DNA from: an uncultured bacterium
GTDB taxonomy: Bacteria > Hydrothermota > Tepidihabitantia > Tepidihabitantales > Tepidihabitantaceae
Direction of reading: 5' to 3'
DNA: 46,344 nucleotides
Assembly (NCBI GenBank): GCA_964485845.1
Contig: CAZAKP010000002.1
Location: forward strand, 1-46,344
Made by a program: the position numbers and the translations under genes
The notes under the pieces: model-generated
What the model was told of the DNA's origin: nothing
The model's input: the letters and a program-made list of their open reading frames with translations, nothing else
Databases searched by the model: none
Shown here: positions 11,204-46,344 of the stretch, in pieces
Numbering within the stretch: the first letter of the stretch is position 1
How the letters are laid out: each line of letters opens with the position of its first letter

Positions 11204-11803
11204 ATGGCCATGAAGAAAACCATCTTGTCCGCTCTGCTCGCGGCGACGGCCGCGTTCTTTTTGGCCCGGTGCAACCAGGACCTGGCCGAATTCACGGGCG
11301 ACGGGGCGAGGATTGCGTCCAACCCGAACTACGGCCACTGGGGAGCGCTGGACAGCAACGGCTACAGTGTCCAGCAGGCGCTCGTCTACGCCATTCAAGA
11401 CGAGCACCATGCCCAGGCCGAGTACCAGTACGTGAACGATAAGTTCAACGACCCTGCGCCTTTCCGCGGCATCGTCCGCTCGGAGGGAATGCACATTTCG
11501 GCGCTGGAGAACCTCTTCAAGCAGCAGGGTTGGCCGGTCCCGGCGAATGAGGGCAAAAGATACATCATCGAAGTCAACACTCTGCGCGAGGCATACCAGG
11601 TAGGCGTAACCGCCGAAATCGACAACATCGCGATGTACGACAAGTTCCTCGCTCGCACTGACCTCCCGTCGAGTTTCCGGAGCGTCTTTACTAATCTTAG
11701 AGACGCGTCGGTCATGCACCAGAGTGCGTTTCAGCGGCACCTGGACGGCGGCGGTGGCGGTGGCGGCGGACGGGGCGGACGCGGCGGAAGAGGCAGACCC
11801 TAG
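11204..11803 (+). CDS. Ferritin-like DUF2202-family lipoprotein with a C-terminal Gly/Arg-rich tail
   Basis: The signal peptide has a lipobox-like LARC. Two DUF2202-like half motifs are present (LVYAIQDEHHAQAEYQY and NLRDASVMHQSAFQRH). The tail reads GGGGGGGRGGRGGRGRP. Confidence 0.5.
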   Translation: MAMKKTILSALLAATAAFFLARCNQDLAEFTGDGARIASNPNYGHWGALDSNGYSVQQALVYAIQDEHHAQAEYQYVNDKFNDPAPFRGIVRSEGMHISALENLFKQQGWPVPANEGKRYIIEVNTLREAYQVGVTAEIDNIAMYDKFLARTDLPSSFRSVFTNLRDASVMHQSAFQRHLDGGGGGGGGRGGRGGRGRP

Positions 11804-21187: not shown

Positions 21188-21661
21188 GCGACTCCTTTCG
21201 ACTTTGCTCTGCCCCCGGAAGGCTCATCGCCCTGCTCGCCAAACCGATACCGCCCGGGACGGGTCGAACCTTGACCACACGTCCATGGGTCCCGCCAGCT
21301 TGACGCCGAGCTCCGGGTAGGCGTCGGCCGAGCCCGCAATTGACTTCCTGAGCAGACCCCGAGTCTTGGCGGGTGCAACATGTATGCCTACCTGGCCTTG
21401 ACCGGCTGCGAGCATGGCCGGAGTGGGCGGCTGGTCGTATGAAGCAGGCTTATCCACATCATTCGGGAGTTATCCACCGGTTGATAACTTCAAGGGTGCC
21501 GCCCTGCCTCGACAGCCGCGTTCAGCCAGTAAGCACTTCCGCCAAACTGTAGTAAAGCGAACGGGGGTATGATGGGCAAGTCAAGGAAGGGCTGTAACCA
21601 TTGTTGATACTCATGATGGACGTAACCTGGCGGGTGACAGAGGGCTAGCGCCGGGTTCTGA

Positions 21662-22903
21662 CTAGCGCGTCCTCACCTGCCTGCGGATAAGCCGGTACGC
21701 CATCCCGAGGACGAGGCTCGCGATACCGGCCGCCAGTGCCTGACGCGGCACCACCACGAGCATCAGGAGGCACGCGGCAAGGCCCAGGCTCGGGTACCAG
21801 GCGTCGCTTTCTTTGAGACGGAGCGCGGCGGCGTTGGTCAGGGCATAGTAGAACAAAGATGCGAACGTACTGACCGCGATAACCTGGGCGAGACCGCCGG
21901 TCAGTACGAGGATGGTGGTCAGAAGCCCGACGATGACGATGGCGACGTGAGGAGTGCCGTAGCGCGGATGCAGCCGGCTCAGAGCAACGGGAAGATCGCC
22001 GTCGCGGGCCATGGCATAGGCCATCCGCGATACGCCGAGGATGGCAGTCAGCAGCACCCCGGCAGTGGCGAACAGCGCACCGATGGACACAATGTACGCG
22101 AACGCGGGGTTGCCGACCGAGGCAATCGCGCGGGCAAGGGGCGATGAAGTTCCGGCCAGCGCCCGGGCCGGTACGAGTCCCAGGGCGGCGAGCCCGACCA
22201 TGACATAGAGCGCCGCGGAGATGACCACGGCGAGCCCGACGGCGCGCGGGACCACGCGCCGCGGGTGGCGTATCTCCTCGGCCACGACTGCGACCCGCGC
22301 GAACCCGGTGAAAGCGAAGAAGATGTAGTTGGCGCCGACGAGTATCCCGGTCCACGAGACGACGAAGGGACGGAGGTGGGCGGGATTGAAGTGGACGGCG
22401 CCGACAACGGTAAAGAAGAGCAGCACGAGGATTGTGACCGAGACGAGGATGGCGTTCAGCCTCACCGAACGGCGGATGCCGATGTAGTTGAGGGCGGTGA
22501 AGGCGGCGCAGAGCAGGACGGCGACGAGCCTCTCGCTGACGCGGGGCAGAAGCTGGGCGACATAGCCGGCAAAACTCAGCGCGACGGCCGCCCCGCCAAA
22601 CAAGTTGGATATCATCCAGATCCATCCGGCAAGGAACCCGGCGACGGGCGCTATCAGGCGCCTGGCGTATTCATACGACCCGCCCTCGGCAGGTTGCCAT
22701 TCGGTCAGCCGCACGAAGCTCTGCGCGGTCAGGAGTGCGACTGCGGCCGCGAGGATAATCGAGAGGATCAGAGCCGGCCCGGCGAGGCCGGCCAGTATGC
22801 CGATGACCACGAATATCCCTGCCCCGATGATTGCGCCGAGGTCGAGGACCAGGGCATCCAGCAGCCCGAGTGTGGGCTTCAGCGTTTCGGGGCTGCGACG
22901 CAT
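21662..22903 (-). CDS. APC-superfamily amino-acid permease
   Basis: About 12 TM segments are predicted. The N-terminal motif reads LGLLDALVLDLGAIIGAGIFVVIG. Confidence 0.8.
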   Translation of the reverse strand: MRRSPETLKPTLGLLDALVLDLGAIIGAGIFVVIGILAGLAGPALILSIILAAAVALLTAQSFVRLTEWQPAEGGSYEYARRLIAPVAGFLAGWIWMISNLFGGAAVALSFAGYVAQLLPRVSERLVAVLLCAAFTALNYIGIRRSVRLNAILVSVTILVLLFFTVVGAVHFNPAHLRPFVVSWTGILVGANYIFFAFTGFARVAVVAEEIRHPRRVVPRAVGLAVVISAALYVMVGLAALGLVPARALAGTSSPLARAIASVGNPAFAYIVSIGALFATAGVLLTAILGVSRMAYAMARDGDLPVALSRLHPRYGTPHVAIVIVGLLTTILVLTGGLAQVIAVSTFASLFYYALTNAAALRLKESDAWYPSLGLAACLLMLVVVPRQALAAGIASLVLGMAYRLIRRQVRTR

Positions 22904-30950: not shown

Positions 30951-31853
30951 ATGAAGGTCTACCTAACCGTGAAGATTGATGCCAAGCCCTCGGCCGCGAA
31001 AGCGCATCGAGCGCCACAGGAAGTAGCGACCGCTCCCCACGCAATCTGGACCGGCACCGTCAGTTTCGGCTCCATCGCGTTTCCGGTAAGGCTGCGTCCG
31101 GCGGTGCGCGAACGGCGGGTTCAGTTCAACCTGCTCCATAAGTCCGACCTTGTCAGGCTGAAACGACAAATGGTCTGTTCGCTCGAAGGCGCGCCCGTTC
31201 CGCCCGAAGACCAGGCCCGTGGCTTCGAATTGGAGGGAGGCAGGTACATCCTGGTCGACCCGGCCGAATTGGAGAAGGCGGAGCCGGAAGCAAGCCGGGC
31301 GATAGCGGTACACGAGTTCGTGGGCGTTGCCGAAATCGACCCGGTGTATTTTGAACGGGGATACTATCTTGAGCCGGCGGAGGATGCAGGGAAAACGGGC
31401 GACAGTCCCCCGGCGCGCCTGCTCCGGACTCAGCGCGGGTCAGTCTCCGTTTTCCCGGAACTGGCGGCGGTGCTGGAAGAGGAGCGCCTCGCGGGCATCT
31501 GCACGTGGGTGATGCGCAAGCGGGCTTACGTCGGCGCGATTCTGTCGGCCGGCGGCGTGCTGCGGCTGAACGTCATTCGCCATCCGGGCGAGGTCATCAA
31601 GGTAGCAAGGCCGGCGGCCGGTTCGGCGCTGTCGGACCGCGAGCTTGCGGTCGGCAGCGAACTCATCAACCAGATGACCGGGAAATTCCAGCCGGAGAAG
31701 TTCACGAACAGCCACCAGCAACGGCTGCGGCAGCTCATCGAGCGCAAGGCGCACGGGCAGAAGATTCGCCTCGTCACGCCGAAGCGCCGCGCTGCCACCG
31801 AGCCGGATAAGCTGCTTTCCGTCCTCGAAGCCAGTCTGAGGAAAGTGGCATGA
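30951..31853 (+). CDS. ku: Ku protein (NHEJ DNA-end-binding), copy 1
   Basis: IWTGTVSFGSIAFPVRL ... ERGYYLEP ... is present. There is a ~30-aa N-terminal extension before the conserved IW.G.ISFG motif. Confidence 0.8.
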   Translation: MKVYLTVKIDAKPSAAKAHRAPQEVATAPHAIWTGTVSFGSIAFPVRLRPAVRERRVQFNLLHKSDLVRLKRQMVCSLEGAPVPPEDQARGFELEGGRYILVDPAELEKAEPEASRAIAVHEFVGVAEIDPVYFERGYYLEPAEDAGKTGDSPPARLLRTQRGSVSVFPELAAVLEEERLAGICTWVMRKRAYVGAILSAGGVLRLNVIRHPGEVIKVARPAAGSALSDRELAVGSELINQMTGKFQPEKFTNSHQQRLRQLIERKAHGQKIRLVTPKRRAATEPDKLLSVLEASLRKVA

Positions 31854-32731
31854 GGAAAGTAAAAAGGACGAAGGACAAAGGACGAAGTCCGGACCGGCGG
31901 ACGGCTCTACCGGCGAAGGTCACGGGCGCGTTTCGACCGACCAGCGACACGAGCCCGGAAGTCTGGCGCGGGACAATCAGCTTCAGTCTTGTCGCCATCC
32001 CGGTCCGGCTGGTTGAGGCAATATCGCCCGACCGGGTTTCCTTCCGGCTGCTGCATCGGAAAGACTACGCGCCGCTCGTGAGCCGGATGCTCTGCCCGAA
32101 CGAAGGGAAGATAGTTCCGAGCGAGGAGATTGTCCGGGGATTTGAGTATAAGCCGGGAAGCTACATCCCGATGACCGCGGCCGAGCTGGAGTCGGTCACC
32201 CCGGAGCGCAGCCGCACCATCGAGGTCACCGACTTCGTTCCCGCCGCGGATGTCGATACGGTCTACTTCGACTACCAGTATTACCTCCAGCCGATGAAGG
32301 GCGGAGAGAAGCCGTATCGCCTGCTGGTCGAGGTGCTGAAGCGCGCCGGGAAAGCCGGCGTCGCGAGCCTCGTGCTGGCCGAACGCGAATACCCGGCGCT
32401 CATCCGGAGCGTGAACGGGCTCCTGGCCGTGAATACGCTGCACTACCCGGACGAAATAGCACCCGTAACAGGGGTAAACACGGAGACGCGGGGACACGCA
32501 GACGCGGAGAAGGAGCGCATCAGGCGGGCGGTGCGGAAGATGGCTGCGAAGTTCGAACCCGATAAGTACGCGGACGAGCGGCGGGCGAAGATCGTGGCGC
32601 TCTTGAAGCGGAAGCTGGCGGGCGAATCGCTGGTGCAGGCGCCCGAGACCGAGGAGACACAAGGCCGGGCGGGTTCGGACCTTGAGGAGCTGCTCGAGGC
32701 CAGCATCGCCAAGGGCGGGAAGAAGGCGTGA
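31850..32731 (+). CDS. ku: Ku protein, copy 2 (tandem paralog) with a Lys/Arg-rich N-terminal extension
   Basis: VWRGTISFSLVAIPVRL ... DYQYYLQP is present. The N-terminus reads MRKVKRTKDKGRSPDRR. An 8-nt repeat (gagacgcg gggacacg cagacgcg) lies at ~32470-32500. The ATGA overlaps the copy 1 stop. Confidence 0.8.
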   Translation: MRKVKRTKDKGRSPDRRTALPAKVTGAFRPTSDTSPEVWRGTISFSLVAIPVRLVEAISPDRVSFRLLHRKDYAPLVSRMLCPNEGKIVPSEEIVRGFEYKPGSYIPMTAAELESVTPERSRTIEVTDFVPAADVDTVYFDYQYYLQPMKGGEKPYRLLVEVLKRAGKAGVASLVLAEREYPALIRSVNGLLAVNTLHYPDEIAPVTGVNTETRGHADAEKERIRRAVRKMAAKFEPDKYADERRAKIVALLKRKLAGESLVQAPETEETQGRAGSDLEELLEASIAKGGKKA

Positions 32732-33675
32732 GCGCAAGGCCGAGGACCGCGGCGCGCCGGACGGCCAGGCGGCCGCAGCGCGAGACGTTTGCCCGGGTCG
32801 GCGGAATCGAGCTGCCGCTTACCAATCTCGAGAAGGACCTCTATCCTGCCTACGGTTTCACCAAAGCCCGGGTGCTCGACTACTATCGGCGGATTTCCAG
32901 GTTCATCCTTCCGCACCTGCGCGACCGGGCGCTGACCCTTAAGCGCTATCCCGACGGCACCGGCGGGCCTTTTTTCTTCGAGAAGCGCTGCCCCTCGTCC
33001 CGGCCGGGCTGGGTTCACCTCGCGAGCGTTCCCGCGCTCGACGGCCAGAGCATTACAGCCTGCGTCGTCAACGACCTCCGCACCCTGATGTGGGTGGAGA
33101 ATCTTGCCTCGATTGAACTCCACGTGCCGCTGGCGCGGGTCGACTCGCCGCACGCGCCGGACTCGCTCGTCTTCGACCTTGATCCCGGCCCGGGCGCGGG
33201 TATGGCCGAATGCTGCCGGGTCGCGCTCATCATCCGCCACATGCTCGAACGGCTGCGCGTGTCGTGCCTCGTCAAGACCTCCGGGATGAAAGGGCTTCAC
33301 GTCCTCGTTCCGCTGAACCGCCAGGAGGTGACGTTCGAGCGGACGCGCGACTTCTCGAAGGCGCTCGCCGCGCTGATACAGCGCGCCAATCCCGAACTCG
33401 TGACAACCCTCGTCGGGAAGGCGGAAAGGGAACGCAGGGTATTCATCAACTGGGCCCAGAACAGCTCGGCCAAGACAATGGTGGCCGTGTATTCGCTTCG
33501 CGCGCGCGAGGCGCCGGCCGTGTCCTGTCCGGTCACGTGGCCCGAGGTCGAAGGCGGAGCGGCGGGCCGCGCCAAACTCACCATCCTTCACACCGACGCC
33601 GTGCGCCGAGCGGAGAAGCTGGGCGACCTTTTCCAGGACGTACTGACGCGGCGCCAGGCCCTTCCCCACCTGTAG
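32728..33675 (+). CDS. Stand-alone LigD polymerase/primase (PolDom) domain protein
   Basis: LTNLEKDLYPAYGFTKARVLDYY ... LKRYPDG ... FFFEK ... FDLDPGPG ... KTSGMKGLHVLVPL ... VFINWAQNSSAKTMVAVYSLRAR is present. No ATP-ligase domain lies in the window. Confidence 0.8.
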   Translation: MSARPRTAARRTARRPQRETFARVGGIELPLTNLEKDLYPAYGFTKARVLDYYRRISRFILPHLRDRALTLKRYPDGTGGPFFFEKRCPSSRPGWVHLASVPALDGQSITACVVNDLRTLMWVENLASIELHVPLARVDSPHAPDSLVFDLDPGPGAGMAECCRVALIIRHMLERLRVSCLVKTSGMKGLHVLVPLNRQEVTFERTRDFSKALAALIQRANPELVTTLVGKAERERRVFINWAQNSSAKTMVAVYSLRAREAPAVSCPVTWPEVEGGAAGRAKLTILHTDAVRRAEKLGDLFQDVLTRRQALPHL

Positions 33676-36278: not shown

Positions 36279-36794
36279 AGTTACCTCCATCAGGCGACTC
36301 GGGCGTCAACCTGACGGCCGGCCGCCTCATTCAAAGCTCAACTCTCTCTCGACCGCGCCTTCGTGAACACGACCAACGGCGCCGAAAACGTCCGGCGCCG
36401 CGCTCACACGGTGGCTATGTGCATTATGCGTGCCGCTCAGTTCGCCGTGGTGGGAGGGAACTCAGTTCCAGTCTTGGCAATGAGCCGGTCAAGGCCCGAT
36501 GCTCGGCGCGTAACTCCCGAGGTTACATATTGCCCGGATTATACTTCGCCCGTTGCACACTTCAGCGGCAAGATTCCGGATTCCTGCCTCTGCCGTCCAT
36601 CTCTCCGACTTCCAACGCCTGCTTATGCCGTGCCTTGGTGCCTTGCATACCGGGCATGTTTCCTGCAAGCATTCGGCCATGCGTCCGCGCGCAGGCGCGG
36701 TTTGATTAAGGCACGGCCAGGTGGCGTACGGGGTATCCGACCAGGTTACGCGACATCGGGCCGACGTCCGGCAGTATTGGAGAAAGGAACTGCA

Positions 36795-37190
36795 ATGGAG
36801 AATTTGAGCAGCCACATTCAGCGGGCAGACTGGCAGAAGGAAAAGCACGTCCCGGTAATCGAGTGCCCGGAAAAGGTCGCGGCCGACACCGAGTTCGCGG
36901 TCAAGGTGAGCCTTGGCAAACAGATCGCCCACCCCAACACAACCGAGCACCACATCCGCTGGATAGACCTTTACTTCTGCGCGGAAGGGGCGAAGAACAC
37001 GTCCCAGGTGGGCCACTTTGAGTTCACGCTGCACGGCGAGTCGGTCGAGGGTCCCAACCAGGGGCCGGCCTACTCAAGTCACGCCGTCACCGCGTACATG
37101 AAGACCAAAAAGCCGGGATGCCTGCATGCGCTGGCCTACTGCAACATCCACGGACTTTGGGAGAGTACAAAAGAGCTGAAACTGACCTAG
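36795..37190 (+). CDS. Superoxide reductase (1Fe neelaredoxin / desulfoferrodoxin centre-II type)
   Basis: The EKHVPVIE and YCNIHGLWES motifs are the SOR iron ligands. The ORF track places it within 36363..37190; the start is taken at ATG 36795. Confidence 0.75.
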   Translation: MENLSSHIQRADWQKEKHVPVIECPEKVAADTEFAVKVSLGKQIAHPNTTEHHIRWIDLYFCAEGAKNTSQVGHFEFTLHGESVEGPNQGPAYSSHAVTAYMKTKKPGCLHALAYCNIHGLWESTKELKLT

Positions 37191-37199
37191 GAGGCGCAA

Positions 37200-37550
37200 A
37201 TGCCCGAATTCCTGAACCCTTTCCCCGGCCGCGTGCCGGACCGCAAGCTTGGCAAGGAAGAGCTGGTGCGGGCGCTCCGGCTTGACCTCGCGGCCGAGCA
37301 CGAGGCGGTACATCTCTACCTCGCTCACGCCGACGCCTGTGAAGACCCGCTGGCCGAGGCAGTGCTGCGCGACATTGCCGACGAGGAGCGGAAGCACATC
37401 GGCGAATTCATGCGCCTGATACTGCTCCTGACCGGCAACGAGCAACAGCTCACCGACTCAGGCGCGCAGGAGGTGGAGCAGATGCGGTCGACACTGGCGG
37501 GTAATAAGAAAACGACGGTCGGTTCGCTGATCGAGACGAAGGAGGCGTGA
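37200..37550 (+). CDS. Encapsulin cargo: ferritin-like protein (EncFtn/Flp type) with a C-terminal targeting peptide
   Basis: The ferritin-like ExxH motifs are AAEHEAVH and DEERKHIGE. The C-terminus TVGSLIETKEA matches the encapsulin cargo-loading peptide consensus. RBS AGGAGG is present. It lies immediately upstream of the shell gene. Confidence 0.7.
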   Translation: MPEFLNPFPGRVPDRKLGKEELVRALRLDLAAEHEAVHLYLAHADACEDPLAEAVLRDIADEERKHIGEFMRLILLLTGNEQQLTDSGAQEVEQMRSTLAGNKKTTVGSLIETKEA

Positions 37551-38341
37551 TGGGCAGCGACTTCGAGAACCGGGCTCTCTCGGGCATTGGTGACAAGACG
37601 TGGGAAGTGCTGGAGCGGGCCGCGGTCGGGGCGGCCAAAAGCCAGCTCTCGGCGCGGCGGTTCATTTCGATTGAGGGGCCGTACGGCCTTGGGGTCCAGG
37701 CAGTGCCCCTGGCCGACGAACATTCGCCGGATGGCCACGCGGTCGCCCGGCTCCTCTCGCTCCACTATCTCTTTCGTACCTTCGGCATGAGCCTGCGCGA
37801 CATCGCCGTCTACGAGCGGGAGTCGCTCACGCTCGATGTCGGGCCGGCGGCGAGCGCCGCCATCGAGTGTGCCCGGGCCGAAGAGGAACTCATCTTTTCG
37901 GGCAGCAAAAAGGCCCCCGGGCTCATATCCTCCGCCGGCGTCGAACGGCACAAACTCGCCTCGTGGCAGCCTTTGGGCAAGGCGGCGGCCGACGCGGTGG
38001 AAGCGGTGAACAAGCTCGACGCCGCCGGGTTCCACGGGCCCTACGCGCTCGCGCTCGCGCCTGCCCGCCACAACCTTTTGTACCGGCTCTATCCCGACGG
38101 CAACGGCACCGAGCTCGGGCACATCGAGAAGATTGTCGGCGGCGGCGTGTTCAAGAGCCCGGCCCTGAAGACGGGCGGTGTGCTGCTTGCCACCGGCGAG
38201 CAGTTCTCGGCCATCGTCATCGGCCAGGACCTCTCCGTCGGCTACGTCGGCCGGGTCGGACCGGACGTCCAGTTGTCGGTTTCAGAGAGCATCGCTCTCT
38301 ACCTGCGCGAACCCAAGGCCGTCTGTGCTTTGGAAGATTGA
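37550..38341 (+). CDS. Family-1 encapsulin nanocompartment shell protein (Linocin M18 / HK97 fold)
   Basis: It is 263 aa. RRFISIEGPYGLG and GQDLSVGYVGR correspond to the T. maritima encapsulin motifs RKFVDVEGPYGWE and GQDLSIGYEDR. The start ATG overlaps the cargo stop (gTGATGg). Confidence 0.8.
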   Translation: MGSDFENRALSGIGDKTWEVLERAAVGAAKSQLSARRFISIEGPYGLGVQAVPLADEHSPDGHAVARLLSLHYLFRTFGMSLRDIAVYERESLTLDVGPAASAAIECARAEEELIFSGSKKAPGLISSAGVERHKLASWQPLGKAAADAVEAVNKLDAAGFHGPYALALAPARHNLLYRLYPDGNGTELGHIEKIVGGGVFKSPALKTGGVLLATGEQFSAIVIGQDLSVGYVGRVGPDVQLSVSESIALYLREPKAVCALED

Positions 38342-40692: not shown

Positions 40693-41535
40693 ATGACCCC
40701 GCTCTCGACTCCTGCCGAAGTTACCTGGTGCCCGGGTTGCGGAAACTTCGGCATCATGAGCGCCTTTAAGCGGGCAGTCACCCGGCTCGAATCGGAGGGA
40801 ATCGACCGCAGTCACCTCTTCATCTCCTCCGGTATCGGCTGCCACGGCAAAATTGCCGACTACCTGGCCCTGTCCGGTTTCTACTCGATTCACGGCCGGG
40901 AGATCGCCACTGTCCAGGGCGTCAAGCTCGCCAATCCCGACCTCTACGTCATCGCCTTCGGCGGCGACGGCGACGCGCTCGGCGAAGGCATCTCGCACCT
41001 GATATTCGCGGCCAAACGCAACGCCGACATGACGATGATAATTCACGACAACGGCGTCTACGCGCTAACCACCGGCCAGTATTCGCCCTTAAGCACCCGC
41101 GGCTACAAAGGACCCTCCACGCCTTCGGGCTCGGTCGAAGACCCGCTCAACCCGCTCAGCCTGATGCTCGCCGCCGGCGCCACCTTTGTGGCCCGTGGCT
41201 ACGCGGGCCGGGTCCCCGAGCTCGCCGACCTCATGTACCGCGCGGTGCGCCACCGCGGGTTCGCCTTCCTCGACGTGCTCCAGCCCAGCGTCGTCTTTAA
41301 CGACACCTACAAGAAGTACAACGCCGAGACCGAACCGGTGACCCACGACCCGAAGAACTTCGGTGAGGCCCTGGCCGCGGCGCAGAAGCTCGACAAGCTT
41401 CAGCTTGGTGTCTTCTACGAAACCGACAAGCCCGCCTTTCACCGCGAACTCCTGGGCGAACGGAACCCGGTGAAAGACCGCCTGTCCCAGGCGGAACGGC
41501 TGGAACGCATCAAGCGCGTTCTCGCCGGAGGCTAG
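40693..41535 (+). CDS. korB: 2-oxoacid:ferredoxin oxidoreductase beta subunit (TPP-binding, KorB-type)
   Basis: TWCPGCGNFGI and GGDGDALGEG (the TPP GDG motif) are present. RBS GGAGG precedes ATG 40693. Confidence 0.8.
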   Translation: MTPLSTPAEVTWCPGCGNFGIMSAFKRAVTRLESEGIDRSHLFISSGIGCHGKIADYLALSGFYSIHGREIATVQGVKLANPDLYVIAFGGDGDALGEGISHLIFAAKRNADMTMIIHDNGVYALTTGQYSPLSTRGYKGPSTPSGSVEDPLNPLSLMLAAGATFVARGYAGRVPELADLMYRAVRHRGFAFLDVLQPSVVFNDTYKKYNAETEPVTHDPKNFGEALAAAQKLDKLQLGVFYETDKPAFHRELLGERNPVKDRLSQAERLERIKRVLAGG

Positions 41536-41544
41536 TGAACTTTC

Positions 41545-41880
41545 ACCTTCACCCTACTCTCCCCCTCAAGGGAGAGGGTAGGGAAGACCCTGAATCCGAC
41601 AATGGAGCAACGAAAGCACGCACTGTCCGACAGGGGCCGCTGCGGCCAAAGACACGAAACAAATGGGTGCGGAATGCCACCTGCCCATTTCACTTCGATT
41701 TCGTGTTTTCGTGGCCATCAATCTCGGTTCCGGGGAAGAGCACACCCTTCCCTCCCCCTCGAGTGCGAGGGAACCAAAGAGCGACCTTCCCTCCTCCACA
41801 AGGCGAGGGAAAACAAGCCTCATCCCTCCCTCCCCCTTCAAGGGAGAGGGAATCGAAGGGAGGGGGTAACACGAACGAGA
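41545..41880. repeat. Cluster of four CCCTC/GAGGG stem-loops in a 340-nt intergenic region
   Basis: The stem-loops are CCCTACTCTCCC cctcaag GGAGAGGGTAGGG (41563-41585), CCCTCG agtg CGAGGG (41752-41767), TTCCCTC ctccacaaggc GAGGGAA (~41787-41811) and CCTCCCTCCCCC ttcaa GGGAGAGGGA (~41826-41850). They generate spurious LKGEG-containing ORFs on both strands. Confidence 0.55.
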
Positions 41881-41891
41881 AGGAGAGACAC

Positions 41892-42545
41892 ATGAAACAG
41901 TGGAAACTGGTCGGACTTGTGCCGGCCATACTCGCCGCCGCCGTCCTATTGGCCGGCTGCGGCGCAAAGACAACGCCGGTGGACCCGATGTCCACTCAGG
42001 CCGGTATCGGCCTGCAAATGGGTATGCGCGACCTCTGGGATGCCCACGTCACCTGGACGCGGATGTACATCGTCTCGGCCGTCGCCAAGCTGCCGGATGC
42101 GTCCACCGCCGCGGCCCGGCTGATGCAGAACCAGGAAGACATCGGTAACGCCATCAAGCCCTACTACGGCGACGACGCCGGCATGCAGCTCACCACCCTG
42201 CTCAAGAACCACATCAGCACGGCGGGCGCGGTCGTAGCAGCGGCGATGGGGAAAGACACGGCGAAGCTTGCCGCGGCCCAGGTCCAGTGGACCGCCAACG
42301 CCGACTCGCTTGCCGATTTCCTCGCCACGGCCAACCCCAACTGGCCCAAGCAGACGCTCGCGGACATGCTCCACGAACACCTGCGGCTCACCACGAACGA
42401 GGCGGTTGCGCGCATCAAAATGGACTGGGCCGGCGACGTGAAGGCTTTCGACGCGATCCACCAGCAGGCGATGATGATGGCCGATGCGCTCAGCTCCGGC
42501 ATCATCAAGCAGTTCCCGGACAAGTTCAAGCCGGCGCAGATGTAG
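41892..42545 (+). CDS. Secreted lipoprotein of the same uncharacterised ~200-aa family (paralog 2 of 3)
   Basis: The lipobox is LLAGC. Family motifs are MRDLWDAHVTWTRMYIVSAV, PYYGDD, WTANADSLADFLATANPNW and GIIKQFP. An RBS precedes ATG 41892. Confidence 0.6.
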   Translation: MKQWKLVGLVPAILAAAVLLAGCGAKTTPVDPMSTQAGIGLQMGMRDLWDAHVTWTRMYIVSAVAKLPDASTAAARLMQNQEDIGNAIKPYYGDDAGMQLTTLLKNHISTAGAVVAAAMGKDTAKLAAAQVQWTANADSLADFLATANPNWPKQTLADMLHEHLRLTTNEAVARIKMDWAGDVKAFDAIHQQAMMMADALSSGIIKQFPDKFKPAQM

Positions 42546-43768: not shown

Positions 43769-44017
43769 AAACCACAGAGCCCACAGAAAGCACAGAATAG
43801 GTGAAGCCAGGGTCTGGTCTCGCCCTTCGGAGTCGCTGTGCTACAAGCGTGCGGGGTCATCGTCTTCGCGGAGGTCTTTCGCTCCGCCGCCTCTGCCCAG
43901 AGGTCGTCCGGTTCGTGCAGTTAGCGGCCTTCGGGACAATTCGACTTTTGATAGCTGCATTTTGCAGTTTGACTTGCGCGTCCGACGCGCGCTGTGAACT
44001 CGGTGGTTCAATATCGG
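43769..44017. repeat. Repeat element copy C (full length, ~250 nt) with imperfect terminal inverted repeats
   Basis: The left terminus is AACCACAGAGCCCACAGAAAGCACAG. The right terminus gctgtgaactcggtggttcaatatcgg is the reverse complement of CCGATATTGAACCACCGAGTTCACAGC. The internal motif GCATTTTGCAGTTTGACTTGCGC lies at 43956-43979. Confidence 0.6.
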
Positions 44018-44081
44018 ATTCAGGGCCCTGGGCGGCCGGCCGCAACCCGGACGAAGAAAGAAATCGGGAGAGGAGAAGAAC

Positions 44082-44738
44082 ATGAAACACACGAAACCCG
44101 CCGGCCTGGCGCTTGCCGTGCTGCTCGGCCTGGCCCTCCTGGCCAATTGCGACGTTAACCAATTGCCCGACCCGGCCTACACCCCCACCGGGGTGGACCT
44201 CCGGCTTGCCATGCGTGAACTATGGAGCGGAGACGCCACCTGGACTCAAATCTACGTCGCCGACGCCTACGGCGGGGAGCCGGACGCGGCCGGCGTCGTA
44301 TTGAACCGGCTGATGCGGAACATGGACCAAATCGCCGACCGATTCAAAACCTACTACGGCGACGACACCGCCGAACGGCTTGGCACGCTGCTGCGCAACC
44401 GGGTCAGCGAAATGTCCGGGCTCGTCGCCGCCGCGCCGCTCGACGACAGCACCCAGTCGGCGCTCGCGCTCGACCAATGGAACGCCAACAGCGACTCGCT
44501 CGCCGGGTTCCTCGCCGGCGTCAACCCCCACTGGAAAAAAGAGACGCTCGTGGAGCTCTTCAACAAACAGGTGGACCTCACCGGCGACGAAGTTATCGCC
44601 CGCCGGGACAAGAAATTCGAGGCCGACATCCGGGGCGGCGACGAAATGCACCTCCAGGTCCTCAGGATAGCCGACGAACTCAGCCGCGGCATCATCCAGC
44701 AGTTCCCGACCAACTTCCAGTACGTGAAACCCCACTAG
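44082..44738 (+). CDS. Secreted lipoprotein of the same uncharacterised family (paralog 3 of 3)
   Basis: The lipobox is LLANC. Family motifs are MRELWSGDATWTQIYVADA, TYYGDD, WNANSDSLAGFLAGVNPHW and GIIQQFP. Confidence 0.6.
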   Translation: MKHTKPAGLALAVLLGLALLANCDVNQLPDPAYTPTGVDLRLAMRELWSGDATWTQIYVADAYGGEPDAAGVVLNRLMRNMDQIADRFKTYYGDDTAERLGTLLRNRVSEMSGLVAAAPLDDSTQSALALDQWNANSDSLAGFLAGVNPHWKKETLVELFNKQVDLTGDEVIARRDKKFEADIRGGDEMHLQVLRIADELSRGIIQQFPTNFQYVKPH

Positions 44739-44823: not shown

Positions 44824-45204
44824 TTATCCGGTGACAAGCCGGCAGGCACGAGCCGCCGGCTTTCCTTCCCGTCCCTTGCGGTTCACTGTCACTGCCTGCA
44901 TGGCGAGCACGAGCCAGCCGATGGACTGCAACAACTGCCCTGCGCTGTAGTGGAGCAGCAAAAGGCCGACGAGCACACAGATGACGAGCGACGTGCCCCA
45001 CGATGCCACGAACTTGAGCCACCCCGGCAGCTTGCCCAGGATGGCGCCGTAGAACCACGGGAGCAACGCTCCGAGCACGGCCCACAACACGGGCGGGAAG
45101 CCGCCCGGCGGGTCACTCAGCCTGGTGGAGTCCGTGGCCGCAAGGGTCACGGTTACACAGGCGAGGGCGACGAACAGGACGAGAGCCGCGAGTCTTTTCG
45201 ACAC
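44824..45204 (-). CDS. Small integral membrane protein (3-4 TM), hypothetical
   Basis: RBS GGAGG lies 6 nt upstream of GTG 45204 (VSKRLAALVLFVALA). The ORF track extends to 45273. Confidence 0.4.
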   Translation of the reverse strand: MSKRLAALVLFVALACVTVTLAATDSTRLSDPPGGFPPVLWAVLGALLPWFYGAILGKLPGWLKFVASWGTSLVICVLVGLLLLHYSAGQLLQSIGWLVLAMQAVTVNRKGREGKPAARACRLVTG

Positions 45205-45205
45205 G

Positions 45206-45442
45206 CTATTCCTCCTTTTCCGAGTTTCGATGTATGCGAACGCCGCCGACAAGCACGCCGCACACTGCCGCACTCATCGCGCCGCAGCATGCCCCGGTGA
45301 TGACCCCATCCTTGCCCCGGCTGATCGCCATCAGGGCCACACCCGACATGGCGACGATGACGAGCGCCACGAGCGCTGCCAGTACGTAAAAACGCCGGCC
45401 GGAAGCATACGGGCACATCGCCGGGCCGGGGCAGCGTCTCAC
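45206..45442 (-). CDS. Small hydrophobic ORF (GACCGAMSAAVCG motif), weakly supported
   Basis: An ORF with one or two TM segments lies directly upstream of 44824..45204 on the same strand. No clear RBS is present. Confidence 0.2.
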   Translation of the reverse strand: MRRCPGPAMCPYASGRRFYVLAALVALVIVAMSGVALMAISRGKDGVITGACCGAMSAAVCGVLVGGVRIHRNSEKEE

Positions 45443-45568
45443 GAGGGCAGACCCCGGGGCCTACCCCGGACGATTCGGGGTATAGTCCGGTGCGTCACTA
45501 GGCGTACCTTTCGGTCACAAACCTATGGTGCCACCCGGAAAGTCGATGTCAAGGCAAATCTACTTGTA

Positions 45569-45790
45569 AGTGGATAAGCCTGTTGATAGTCCAGTGGAAC
45601 AGCCAAAAAGGGCGGTTTTTGGGTATATCCCGGGGGCAAGAATGGGGATAGAATGTGGACAACTCGCCCATCTCGGCATGGTTGTGCATGTCGCGCGTAC
45701 TATGCGGGTGGGGGTATCGCATTACTTATCCCCATGTATCCACATCCCAACAACAACAGCAATCTTATAGATATCATTTGTTGTTGTTCC
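45569..45790. promoter_or_regulatory. Low-GC non-coding region with four DnaA-box-like 9-mers and an AT-rich hairpin
   Basis: The 9-mers are the reverse complement of AGTGGATAAG giving TTATCCACT (45569-45578), the reverse complement of TGTGGACAA giving TTGTCCACA (45654-45662), TTATCCCCA (45726-45734) and GTATCCACA (45736-45744, spaced 10 nt from the previous). The hairpin is AACAACAACA-(20 nt AT-rich)-TGTTGTTGTT (45749-45788). Confidence 0.4.
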
Positions 45791-45956
45791 GGAAGGGAGC
45801 GTCCCGCGAGCCGAAAACCGGGCGCAAGACCATGGGCAGTCCCACGCGGGGGCCGGTCCCGGAACCCCCGCCAAATGCCCTTCCGCACGACAGAGCCGGC
45901 CCGCTGTTGCGTCCGGACTACCTGGACGGGGAAAGGAAGCTGCCATTCGGGATCTG

Positions 45957-46040
45957 AGCCCGATATTGAGCCCCGGATTTCACGGCGCGCGGCGGGGGGC
46001 AAGTCAGACTGCAGAATGCGGAGAGCAAAACGCAGAACGC
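45957..46040. repeat. Repeat element copy D (partial, inverted orientation)
   Basis: CCCGATATTGAGCCCCGGATTTCACGGCGCGCGGCGG ... GCAAGTCAGACTGCAGAATGC aligns base-for-base with the reverse complement of copy C's right end (CCGATATTGAACCACCGAGTTCACAGCGCGCGTCGG ... GCAAGTCAAACTGCAAAATGC). Confidence 0.6.
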
Positions 46041-46105
46041 CGCACACTCTCCGCGACCTCGGCGGTTGACAGGCCGGAGAAGCGGGCTAGGATGGAGGAG
46101 TGAAG

Positions 46106-46276
46106 ATGGCCTGGTTGATTTATTGGCCGCTATTGCTCGTGGTGGCGGCGGCGGTTGCGGCGGGGGTAGCCGTCATTGTGCGAAGGCTGCGGCACCAGGG
46201 GGATAATCCGTTCATCGTGCCGCCGCCGGAGGGTGAGGACCGAGGGGATGGTTCAACCACGGATGAACGCAGATGA
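46106..46276 (+). CDS. Small single-TM protein (56 aa), absent from the ORF track
   Basis: RBS GGAGGAG lies 5 nt upstream of ATG. The protein reads MAWLIYWPLLLVVAAAVAAGVAVIVRRLRHQGDNPF ... . Its 3' end overlaps repeat-like sequence (GGTTCAACCACGG ... TTCAGAG x3). Confidence 0.35.
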   Translation: MAWLIYWPLLLVVAAAVAAGVAVIVRRLRHQGDNPFIVPPPEGEDRGDGSTTDERR

Positions 46277-46344
46277 GGCGGAGAGGGACAGTTCAGAGTT
46301 CAGAATTCAGAGACCAGAATGCAGAGTGGCGGACACGGAGCGGA

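Follow-up and report, generated by a model that had tools for sequence, protein, structure and literature searches.

Within a 46,344-nt stretch of DNA from an uncultured Hydrothermota bacterium (contig CAZAKP010000002.1, positions 1 to 46,344; hereafter the window), six DnaA-box-like 9-mers lie beside an AT-rich palindrome in a non-coding region near the right end. Because this array always occurs with the same small operon while the neighbourhoods around both shift, its most likely role is that of a control region bound by DnaA and not of a chromosome origin. We favour, with somewhat better than even confidence, a DnaA-box cluster outside the chromosomal origin (oriC) that controls a portable operon of small membrane proteins.

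Architecture of the DnaA-box array

The sequence examined comprises 54.7 kb, namely the window and 8.4 kb recovered to its right, and box mismatches were scored against the DnaA-box consensus TTATCCACA. Pair A (45569..45589, minus strand) consists of TTATCCACT at 45569-45577 (box A2, 8/9) and CTATCAACA at 45581-45589 (box A1, 7/9), arranged in tandem with a 3-bp gap and pointing to the promoter side. Pair B (45643..45662, minus strand) has the same orientation, with CTATCCCCA at 45643-45651 (7/9) and TTGTCCACA at 45654-45662 (8/9) separated by 2 bp, and is followed by a conserved TTTTGCCCCC. Pair C (45726..45744, plus strand) is composed of TTATCCCCA at 45726-45734 and GTATCCACA at 45736-45744, both 8/9, with a 1-bp gap (T) and 10 bp from start to start; it is oriented opposite to pairs A and B and points toward the palindrome. 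Since the 8/9 minus-strand boxes at 45569 and 45654 each have a 7/9 partner 11-12 bp away, the array is a set of three tandem pairs. The pair-to-pair distances, 82 and 73 bp, are the same in the window and in the related contig L064.

The palindrome is imperfect and AT-rich (45749..45794, no strand assigned). It begins 4 bp past pair C and comprises the arms AACAACAACA (45749-45758) and TGTTGTTGTT (45779-45788), a short inner palindrome and a conserved TTCCGGAA at 45787-45794. A sequence-only reading of this DNA had described a 10-bp stem with a 20-nt AT-rich loop at 45749-45788, and the arms are indeed an exact 10-bp inverted repeat with 20 nt between them. The same reading had reported four 8/9 boxes, two of them in tandem, within about 650 nt devoid of a convincing coding sequence, and had judged such clustering improbable by chance. 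All four boxes are present; the spacer is 657 nt long (45443-46099) and is flanked by divergent small genes. With the two 7/9 boxes, the array holds six boxes in 176 bp of intergenic DNA. At least three boxes with at most one mismatch are expected of an oriC, and four are found here.

The excess over chance is large. Whole-window shuffles predicted 2.9 box matches against the 8 observed, and dinucleotide shuffles of the 657-nt region yielded on average 0.09 boxes of no more than one mismatch, with four or more in 0 of 3000. No 250-nt window with at least three such boxes was found in 764 kb of unrelated bacterial loci. In an unbiased k-mer count of the region, TATCCACA/TTATCCAC was the top repeated word, and the consensus recovered de novo agrees with the DnaA box at all nine positions. 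The box cluster is real and far beyond chance.

Conservation of the module in related lineages

Contigs of the same population (L001-L009 and L063) are 100% identical across the region and are therefore useless for judging conservation. Five further lineages with the module (L064/L066, L071-74, L075, L076 and L077) were reached via homologs of the 126-aa and 78-aa proteins encoded by the operon. The same 250-bp architecture stands directly upstream of the 78-aa homolog in every lineage for which upstream DNA is available, in the order TTCCGGAA, palindrome, GGGA and pair C, pair B and TTTTGCCCCC, pair A, TTGACA and leader (alignments A3, A4 and A6). The palindrome arms of the relatives are of the (AAC)n/(GTT)n type, and GGGA adjoins pair C. 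The boxes lie some 135-320 nt before the start codon in four lineages and slightly farther upstream in L077.

Boxes with at most one mismatch number six in L064/L066 (one perfect), three in L071-73 (one perfect), five in L075 (one perfect), four in L076 (two perfect) and five in L077 (three perfect), and the relatives' boxes are often nearer to the consensus than those of the window. Box A2 reads TTATCCACA or TTGTCCACA in the relatives, the position of pair B carries a perfect TTATCCACA (three in a row in L077), and pair C is 100% identical in L064 and L066. Changes from lineage to lineage, namely TTGTCCACA/TTATCCACA and CTATCCCCA/CTATCCACA, remain within one mismatch of TTATCCACA.

A phylogenetic footprint, taken as mean column identity over five lineages, gave 0.87-0.93 for the boxes except A1 (0.69): 0.91 for A2, with seven of nine columns invariant, 0.89 and 0.93 for pair B, and 0.87 and 0.88 for pair C. 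Inter-box spacers scored 0.60-0.66 and TTGACA was invariant. The palindrome arms are conserved while the loop is variable (0.62), and the palindrome forms the distal limit of the module, past which (45797 onward) identity is 0.53. Whether the boxes recur in related genomes had been raised by the sequence-only reading as a check, and they are conserved in five other lineages. These results show that the boxes are under purifying selection relative to the surrounding non-coding DNA. A 19-mer metagenome scan returned the true relatives and two chance matches in coding DNA (L067 and L068).

A constant module in changing neighbourhoods

On its distal side the module has an identifiable neighbour in five lineages, and no two of these neighbours are alike. 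They are a 58-aa gene in the window, a secreted protein in L064/L066, the HmaA SNF2 helicase of the Hma defence system in L071 (1566 bits, PADLOC), an IS630-type DDE transposase in L075, and tRNA-Pro with tRNA-Arg in L077; L076 offers only a 30-aa fragment of an open reading frame, to which no identity was assigned. The downstream side varies as well, in that the window has a convergent 218-aa gene where other lineages have further small genes. In contig L012, from a more distant relative, the 218-aa neighbour protein is 63% identical and the order of the 354-aa, 218-aa and 58-aa genes, the last with its promoter, is kept. Both small minus-strand genes and all DnaA boxes are absent from this syntenic slot, which holds an unrelated repeat-rich spacer instead, and the cassette inserted relative to L012 (module and operon) measures about 1.3 kb. 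The chromosomal position, which is expected to be conserved for an oriC, is thus not conserved, given the L012 slot and the differing distal flanks. As the module stays constant while the flanks vary, the conserved unit consists of the palindrome, the six boxes, the promoter and the small-protein operon, and this unit is portable.

The HmaA helicase gene of L071 (3-3242) is full length and is the divergent neighbour of the module, which places the module at the edge of an anti-phage defence locus in that lineage.

The operon, its leader and the promoter side

The first gene of the operon (45206..45442, minus strand) encodes a 78-aa predicted two-helix membrane protein with no family assigned, and the second (44824..45204, minus strand) a 126-aa predicted membrane protein of no known family. 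Searches of Pfam, NCBIfam, PHROG and PADLOC at curated thresholds gave no credible family for these proteins. Gene callers place the start of the 78-aa gene at 45418 (70 aa); conservation of the N-terminal residues RRCPGPAMCPYASG favours the GTG start at 45442. The 78-aa protein has 19 homolog clusters and is 77-87% identical between lineages (protein alignment A5), and the 126-aa homologs P0010 and P0011 (81-83% identity) are encoded downstream of the 78-aa homolog.

A miniature inverted-repeat transposable element (MITE)-like sequence about 110 nt long, whose terminal inverted repeats are ATTTCGCCCCAA/TTGGGGCGAAAT, lies inside the 78-aa gene in L076 (789-914), where it is in frame, and in L077 (2891-3010), where it brings a stop codon. 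Another copy stands between the two tRNA genes of L077 (2016-2105).

The hexamer TTGACA (45547..45552, minus strand), a likely -35 element, is invariant in six lineages and lies 16 bp from box A2, the start of which is 127 nt from the start codon. The leader between TTGACA and the start codon (45443..45546, minus strand) contains an invariant GGCA 13 nt after TTGACA and hairpins of G/C runs (CCCCGG...GGGG...CCCC); its mean column identity is 0.71, with 23 of 98 columns invariant (alignment A4). The leaders of the window, L064, L071, L075, L076 and L077 share conserved runs of the form C5-6 GG, N6-8, GGGG, N3-4, CCCC. These may form alternative hairpins, as in a structured 5' leader or attenuator; no Rfam family was found at gathering thresholds over the whole window, nor at E<=1 on 45300-46344. 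A sigma-54 promoter at TGGCAC was considered and rejected, as the GC expected at the -12 position is present in no lineage.

A cluster standing before a promoter is what a DnaA-regulated operon would call for, and the array lies upstream of the homologous gene in all six lineages. The sequence-only reading had proposed three explanations, namely a replication origin, a DnaA-regulated promoter, and a plasmid or phage origin remnant; the second is the best supported, given an array 16 bp from an invariant TTGACA and co-conserved with the 78-aa gene in six lineages.

A proposed DnaA-controlled operon and what weighs against it

The segment 45547-45794 would then be the upstream control region of the minus-strand accessory operon encoding the 78-aa and 126-aa proteins. 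Pairs A and B face TTGACA and the genes, and pair C faces the palindrome and a run of five YTG trinucleotides, (YTG)5, at its edge. DnaA would bind the pairs cooperatively and form an oligomer over about 180 bp, which would set the activity of the adjacent promoter, so that the membrane proteins could be expressed in step with the level or nucleotide state of DnaA or with replication status. The array may also sequester DnaA as a side effect, as the non-oriC clusters of Bacillus subtilis do.

Several points weigh against this proposal. DnaA as the binder, the direction of regulation and the titration effect are what we infer from sequence. No convincing -10 element accompanies TTGACA, and a sigma-70 scan found no full promoter on the minus strand. 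Six boxes in three oriented pairs, beside the least stable duplex of the 54.7 kb, are heavier equipment than most DnaA-regulated promoters carry, and the array looks like the DnaA-oligomerisation region of an origin with its unwinding element. In L077, the first gene is broken by the MITE, yet the array is intact and has the best boxes of all, which hints that the array may function independently of the 78-aa gene. Finally, no physiological logic for DnaA control of this operon is on offer.

Geometry of the palindrome and the (YTG)5 run

The segment 45749-45788 is 27.5% GC and is both the lowest-GC and the thermodynamically least stable 40-mer in the 54.7 kb. An AT-rich unwinding element, the second feature expected of an oriC, is thus present by sequence in the form of a predicted least stable 40-mer at the edge of the box cluster. 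Folded as DNA, the palindrome has a free energy of -9.7 kcal/mol (z = -5.3). Next to pair C, at 45745..45763 (no strand assigned), TCCC is followed by AAC AAC AAC AGC AAT on the plus strand, equal to (YTG)5 on the minus strand. In an origin, DnaA-trios would be expected at this place. This segment is conserved as strongly as the boxes (column identity 0.91, 13 of 19 columns invariant), and the 3-nt register of the repeats is retained in L071, where the palindrome no longer folds.

The layout recalls the basal unwinding system (BUS) of bacterial origins, in which a DnaA box and a second box no more than 3 bp away are followed by about 4 bp of G/C, three or more DnaA-trios and then AT-rich DNA (PMC8287927). 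Its published rules allow at most two mismatches per box, a tandem gap of at most 3 bp and a spacer of 0-16 bp, and ask for at least three trios of the form 3'-NAN-5' (consensus 3'-GAT-5') (PMC8287927), which must lie on the strand where the box reads 5'-TGTGGATAA-3'. We based this strand rule on the Clostridioides difficile trio sequence, the Helicobacter pylori consensus and Escherichia coli oriC. In H. pylori, the trios follow a 5'-YTR-3' top-strand consensus and reversal of their polarity abolishes unwinding (PMC8235120). In E. coli oriC, the upper strand bound by DnaA has TTGT/TTATT 5' of R1 when the latter is read as TGTGGATAA (PMC10316083); the oriC sequence that we used was checked and is single-copy in 5421 of 5426 E. 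coli genomes.

Pair C, TTATCCCCA-T-GTATCCACA, with both boxes 8/9 and a 1-bp gap, agrees with the box rule, and the first repeat starts 14 bp beyond the upstream box (1 + 9 + 4, the last being TCCC), in agreement with the spacer rule. Relative to the AT-rich element, pair C has the same orientation as E. coli R1. The trio rule is where agreement ends: the box-reading strand is 5'-TTG CTG TTG TTG TTG-GGA-TGTGGATAC, in which the repeats contain no adenine, so (YTG)5 departs from the defining NAN pattern. NAN repeats occur only with reversed polarity, or with the first of them 32 nt from the box, where the limit is 16. The E. coli-type motif TT[G/A]T(T) is found in the window, L075 and L077 and not in L064, L071 or L076. 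Deviant trios without a central adenine are expected to exist by the BUS authors (PMC8287927).

The part formed by pair C, the repeats and the palindrome may serve for melting with the help of DnaA or for binding of a second factor; a second factor that binds the palindrome arms is as possible as melting by DnaA with deviant trios. As an integron attC site, a reading that was also considered, the palindrome was rejected for want of a match to the R''/R' core sites RYYYAAC/GTTRRRY.

A second cluster 24 kb away

Another DnaA-box cluster occupies 21444-21690 of the window, with a perfect TTATCCACA at 21450, TTATCCACC at 21470, and TTATCAACC at 21479, GTATCAACA at 21602 and TTATCCGCA at 21682, the last three on the minus strand. 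Its one perfect, two 8/9 and two 7/9 boxes were matched by 0 of 3000 shuffles, so the cluster is equally significant. The 474-nt spacer that holds it separates an amino-acid permease gene from a LUD-domain gene, and the cluster lies upstream of the latter. Its presence means that one or more of the clusters in so short a stretch are not origins.

GTTATCCACCGGTTGATAAC within this cluster is an 18/20 palindrome. The exact 13-mer CAGGCTTATCCAC is common to the second cluster and box A2; the two inverted copies, 24 kb apart, were considered as terminal inverted repeats of a large element and rejected, as no mobility genes lie between them, the 27-nt similarity is weak, and shared 13-mers are expected by chance in 46 kb.

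Alternative explanations

We consider it unlikely that the array is an operator for another transcription factor with a site that looks like a DnaA box by coincidence; a response regulator or an enhancer-binding protein would be examples. Tandem direct repeats at 10-12 bp are typical of winged-helix response regulators. The window has a gene for a sigma-54 activator, the GGCA that invariably stands 13 nt after TTGACA is reminiscent of a sigma-54 -24 element, and the 13-mer CAGGCTTATCCAC recurs in the second cluster. However, the consensus fits the DnaA box at 9/9 positions, relatives have up to three perfect TTATCCACA, and the lineage-specific changes from TTGTCCACA to TTATCCACA and from CTATCCCCA to CTATCCACA never leave the one-mismatch neighbourhood. 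Gaps within pairs vary (1, 2 and 3 bp), as in origins and unlike the fixed spacing of response-regulator sites, and the sigma-54 -12 GC is missing in all lineages.

A bolder alternative, to which we give a distinctly small probability, is that the module is a self-contained, horizontally portable DnaA melting element, a basal unwinding system of the origin type in which adenine-free 3'-GTY-5' trinucleotides take the place of DnaA-trios. Such an element could act as the replication origin of a small mobile cassette or as a secondary origin. Alternatively, it could work as a DnaA-sensing switch: a disturbance of replication initiation, such as phage attack might cause, would lead to the release of small membrane proteins, possibly pore-forming ones. 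The phage example is suggested by the Hma defence gene that adjoins the module in one lineage. In its narrower form, a portable DnaA-dependent unwinding module with non-canonical trinucleotides that is the origin of a small mobile cassette or a secondary origin, the idea seems very unlikely. It would account for the changing contexts, which include tRNA-Arg, the IS630 transposase and the defence gene, and for a (YTG)5 run whose strand and distance from a tandem pair are both canonical and which is as conserved as the boxes (0.91) and keeps its register, and the BUS authors anticipate deviant trios (PMC8287927). Against it, the cassette measures only about 1.3 kb relative to L012 and comes with neither a recombinase, rep or relaxase gene nor a boundary flanked by repeats, and no similarity to plasmid or phage records or IMG/VR contigs was found. 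The adenine-free arm breaks the only sequence rule defined for trios, and only half of the lineages (the window, L075 and L077, as against L064, L071 and L076) have the TT[G/A]T(T) motif.

A chromosomal oriC, in which DnaA on the three pairs melts the palindrome and the operon is merely a conserved neighbour, is likewise a very improbable reading. Its appeal lies in the architecture: boxes, six in all, that point in two opposed directions like those of the left and right DnaA-oligomerisation regions of E. coli, with conserved spacing between pairs; pair C oriented as E. coli R1 relative to the AT-rich element (strand assignment from PMC10316083); a tandem pair, a 4-bp G/C spacer and 3-nt-periodic repeats that fit BUS geometry; and a palindrome that is the least stable duplex of the 54.7 kb. 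In addition, cumulative GC skew, computed on the 54.7 kb only, has a local minimum at 45-46 kb, a signal that counts in favour under the check set out by the sequence-only reading. This minimum, however, is largely an effect of gene orientation and codon usage. Per-gene GC3 skew reveals a general preference for C-ending codons on the coding strand, by which the skew follows gene orientation, with plus-strand pyruvate:ferredoxin oxidoreductase (POR) and secreted-protein genes to the left and a large minus-strand resistance-nodulation-division (RND) gene to the right; the skew is positive again left of 36 kb. With only 54.7 kb and this orientation effect, skew cannot carry the origin reading.

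Other evidence speaks against an oriC. The 1.3-kb module and operon are absent from the otherwise syntenic L012 slot, and among the differing distal flanks are tRNAs, a defence gene and a transposase. Neither behaviour as an indel nor such neighbours would be expected of an essential single-copy origin, which makes an oriC unlikely. Neither dnaA, dnaN, gyrB, recF, rpmH, parAB nor gidA was found in the 54.7 kb (Pfam scans of window open reading frames; gene calls of the right 8.4 kb), in line with the sequence-only reading, which had seen no dnaA or dnaN in the window. Approximately 8 kb of plus-strand genes (POR and an encapsulin operon among them) would run head-on into the origin, an equally significant cluster lies 24 kb away, and the trios of the canonical strand are without the central adenine, in a setting where polarity matters experimentally (PMC8235120). 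The origin proposed by the sequence-only reading is thus disfavoured by the changing neighbourhoods, the L012 slot, the lack of marker genes, the second cluster and the absence of a canonical-strand trio.

Its third proposal, a plasmid or phage origin remnant, finds no support. There is no rep-like gene among the examined genes and no direct-repeat family, and hence no iterons, besides the boxes; blastn gave no match among 72,556 plasmid or 50,697 phage records (PLSDB, INPHARED), and the IMG/VR search yielded no relative, its lone match (L078) being a chance hit in coding DNA.

An accidental build-up of AT-rich words in this low-GC spacer has a negligible probability: the region is locally AT-rich (59% GC vs 64%), which raises the background rate of AT-rich 9-mers, but 0 of 3000 local dinucleotide shuffles reach the observed count and the boxes are selectively kept across six lineages while the spacers have diverged, so that shuffles and footprint together rule it out.

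Comparison with known DnaA-box clusters

On its sequence, the array is best filed as a non-oriC DnaA-box cluster or DnaA-regulated promoter with an unusually origin-like architecture. What is unusual is its linkage to a portable operon of small membrane proteins without known family. In B. subtilis, six clusters of DnaA boxes outside oriC modulate initiation (PMC13220808), and some of these lie upstream of sda, ywlC and yydA, as summarized in PMC13220808 from Okumura et al. 2012. The array resembles them in having intergenic near-consensus boxes upstream of a presumably regulated gene, from which some sequestration of DnaA would be expected, and in that more than one cluster occurs in the chromosomal neighbourhood, the second being at 21.4 kb. 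It differs in belonging to another phylum, in an uncultured high-GC lineage whose proteins carry FlgD_ig/CHU_C tails of the type IX secretion system (T9SS) type. It also differs in its three tandem pairs, its origin-like repeat and palindrome, and its tie to a portable small-membrane-protein operon, and DnaA binding is here a prediction.

At box clusters in front of promoters, DnaA serves as a transcription factor, and the Pseudomonas oriCII operon is regulated in this manner (PMC13438810). As described there, oriCII is an oriC-like cluster before a promoter, upstream of gidA, as the array is before its own operon, and regulation of the operon by DnaA was shown for oriCII. Unlike the present module, which occurs in variable contexts without origin-region genes, oriCII is placed by the same source in a conserved, origin-proximal gidAB-parAB region.

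With datA and DARS1/2 of E. coli (PMC4585315, PMC5010248), the array shares the form of a non-coding box cluster outside oriC; those loci act on DnaA and do not initiate replication. They differ from the array in their defined box numbers and orientations, dependence on IHF or Fis, conserved position and lack of a tie to a downstream operon. The likeness to BUS (PMC8287927, PMC6669920, PMC8235120) covers the tandem pair with its 1-bp gap, the 4-bp G/C spacer, the five 3-nt repeats and the most AT-rich DNA, and, for E. coli, the proximal box oriented to AT-rich DNA as R1. In contrast to BUS, the trio strand reads 3'-GTY-5' without adenine, and the locus is not at dnaA and its position is not conserved.

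Clusters of this type have been studied well only in a few model bacteria, and the present one is a conserved and precisely organised example from uncultured high-GC lineages. If DnaA binds it, a new DnaA-controlled function will have been identified. If (YTG)5 is melted by DnaA, the sequence rules for single-strand recognition by the initiator would be extended. The case also indicates that common heuristics for locating origins, namely a box cluster, an AT-rich element and a local skew minimum, can mislead on metagenomic contigs.

Neighbouring genes, repeats and other contents of the window

The 58-aa gene on the distal side encodes a membrane protein, starts at 46100 on the plus strand and has the promoter TTGACA-N16-TAGGAT. 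Gene and promoter are shared between the window (46066-46276) and L012 (3641-3835), with approximately 85% amino-acid identity over the first 40 residues and unrelated upstream DNA. Degenerate tandem heptamers of the TNCAGAR type (e.g. TTCAGAG TTCAGAA TTCAGAG ACCAGAA TGCAGAG) occupy intergenic DNA on both sides of this gene, at 45989-46047 and 46278-46336. One of the arrays varies within the population by an indel of 156 nt between contigs (an insertion after ~46320 in L003/L005), and related arrays occur in spacers of L012 and L064/L066 and in the leader of L071. A dispersed short repeat, GTGGTTCAATATCGGAWTCAG, is found at 44004-44027, upstream of the 218-aa gene, and in the repeat-rich spacer of L064/L066 (L064 ~1217-1240 and ~1385-1410), which suggests a family of the repetitive extragenic palindromic (REP) or MITE type common to the two lineages.

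Genes of the window encode chemotaxis and two-component proteins, multicopper oxidases with T9SS-type tails and a sigma-54 activator, with no tRNA among them; the 8.4 kb to the right contain CarboxypepD_reg proteins, an RND pump and PmbA/TldD. A non-homologous end joining module at 30951-33675 consists of two tandem Ku genes followed by a gene for a stand-alone LigD primase-polymerase domain. An encapsulin operon at 36363-38341 encodes a desulfoferrodoxin-domain protein, a ferritin-like (EncFtn-like) cargo and a Linocin_M18 shell, and is followed by the alpha and beta genes of POR, which show a strong C3 codon preference.

No member of the family of the 218-aa neighbour protein exceeds 42% identity among GTDB representatives. 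Paralogous secreted proteins or lipoproteins with the motifs MRELW..TWT and NPxW..QFP are encoded at 11204-11803, 41535-42545 and 44082-44738. The MRELW..TWT family has few homologs in 5.8 billion proteins, with distant relatives of 32-42% identity in Gemmatimonadota, Chloroflexota, Acidobacteriota and others.

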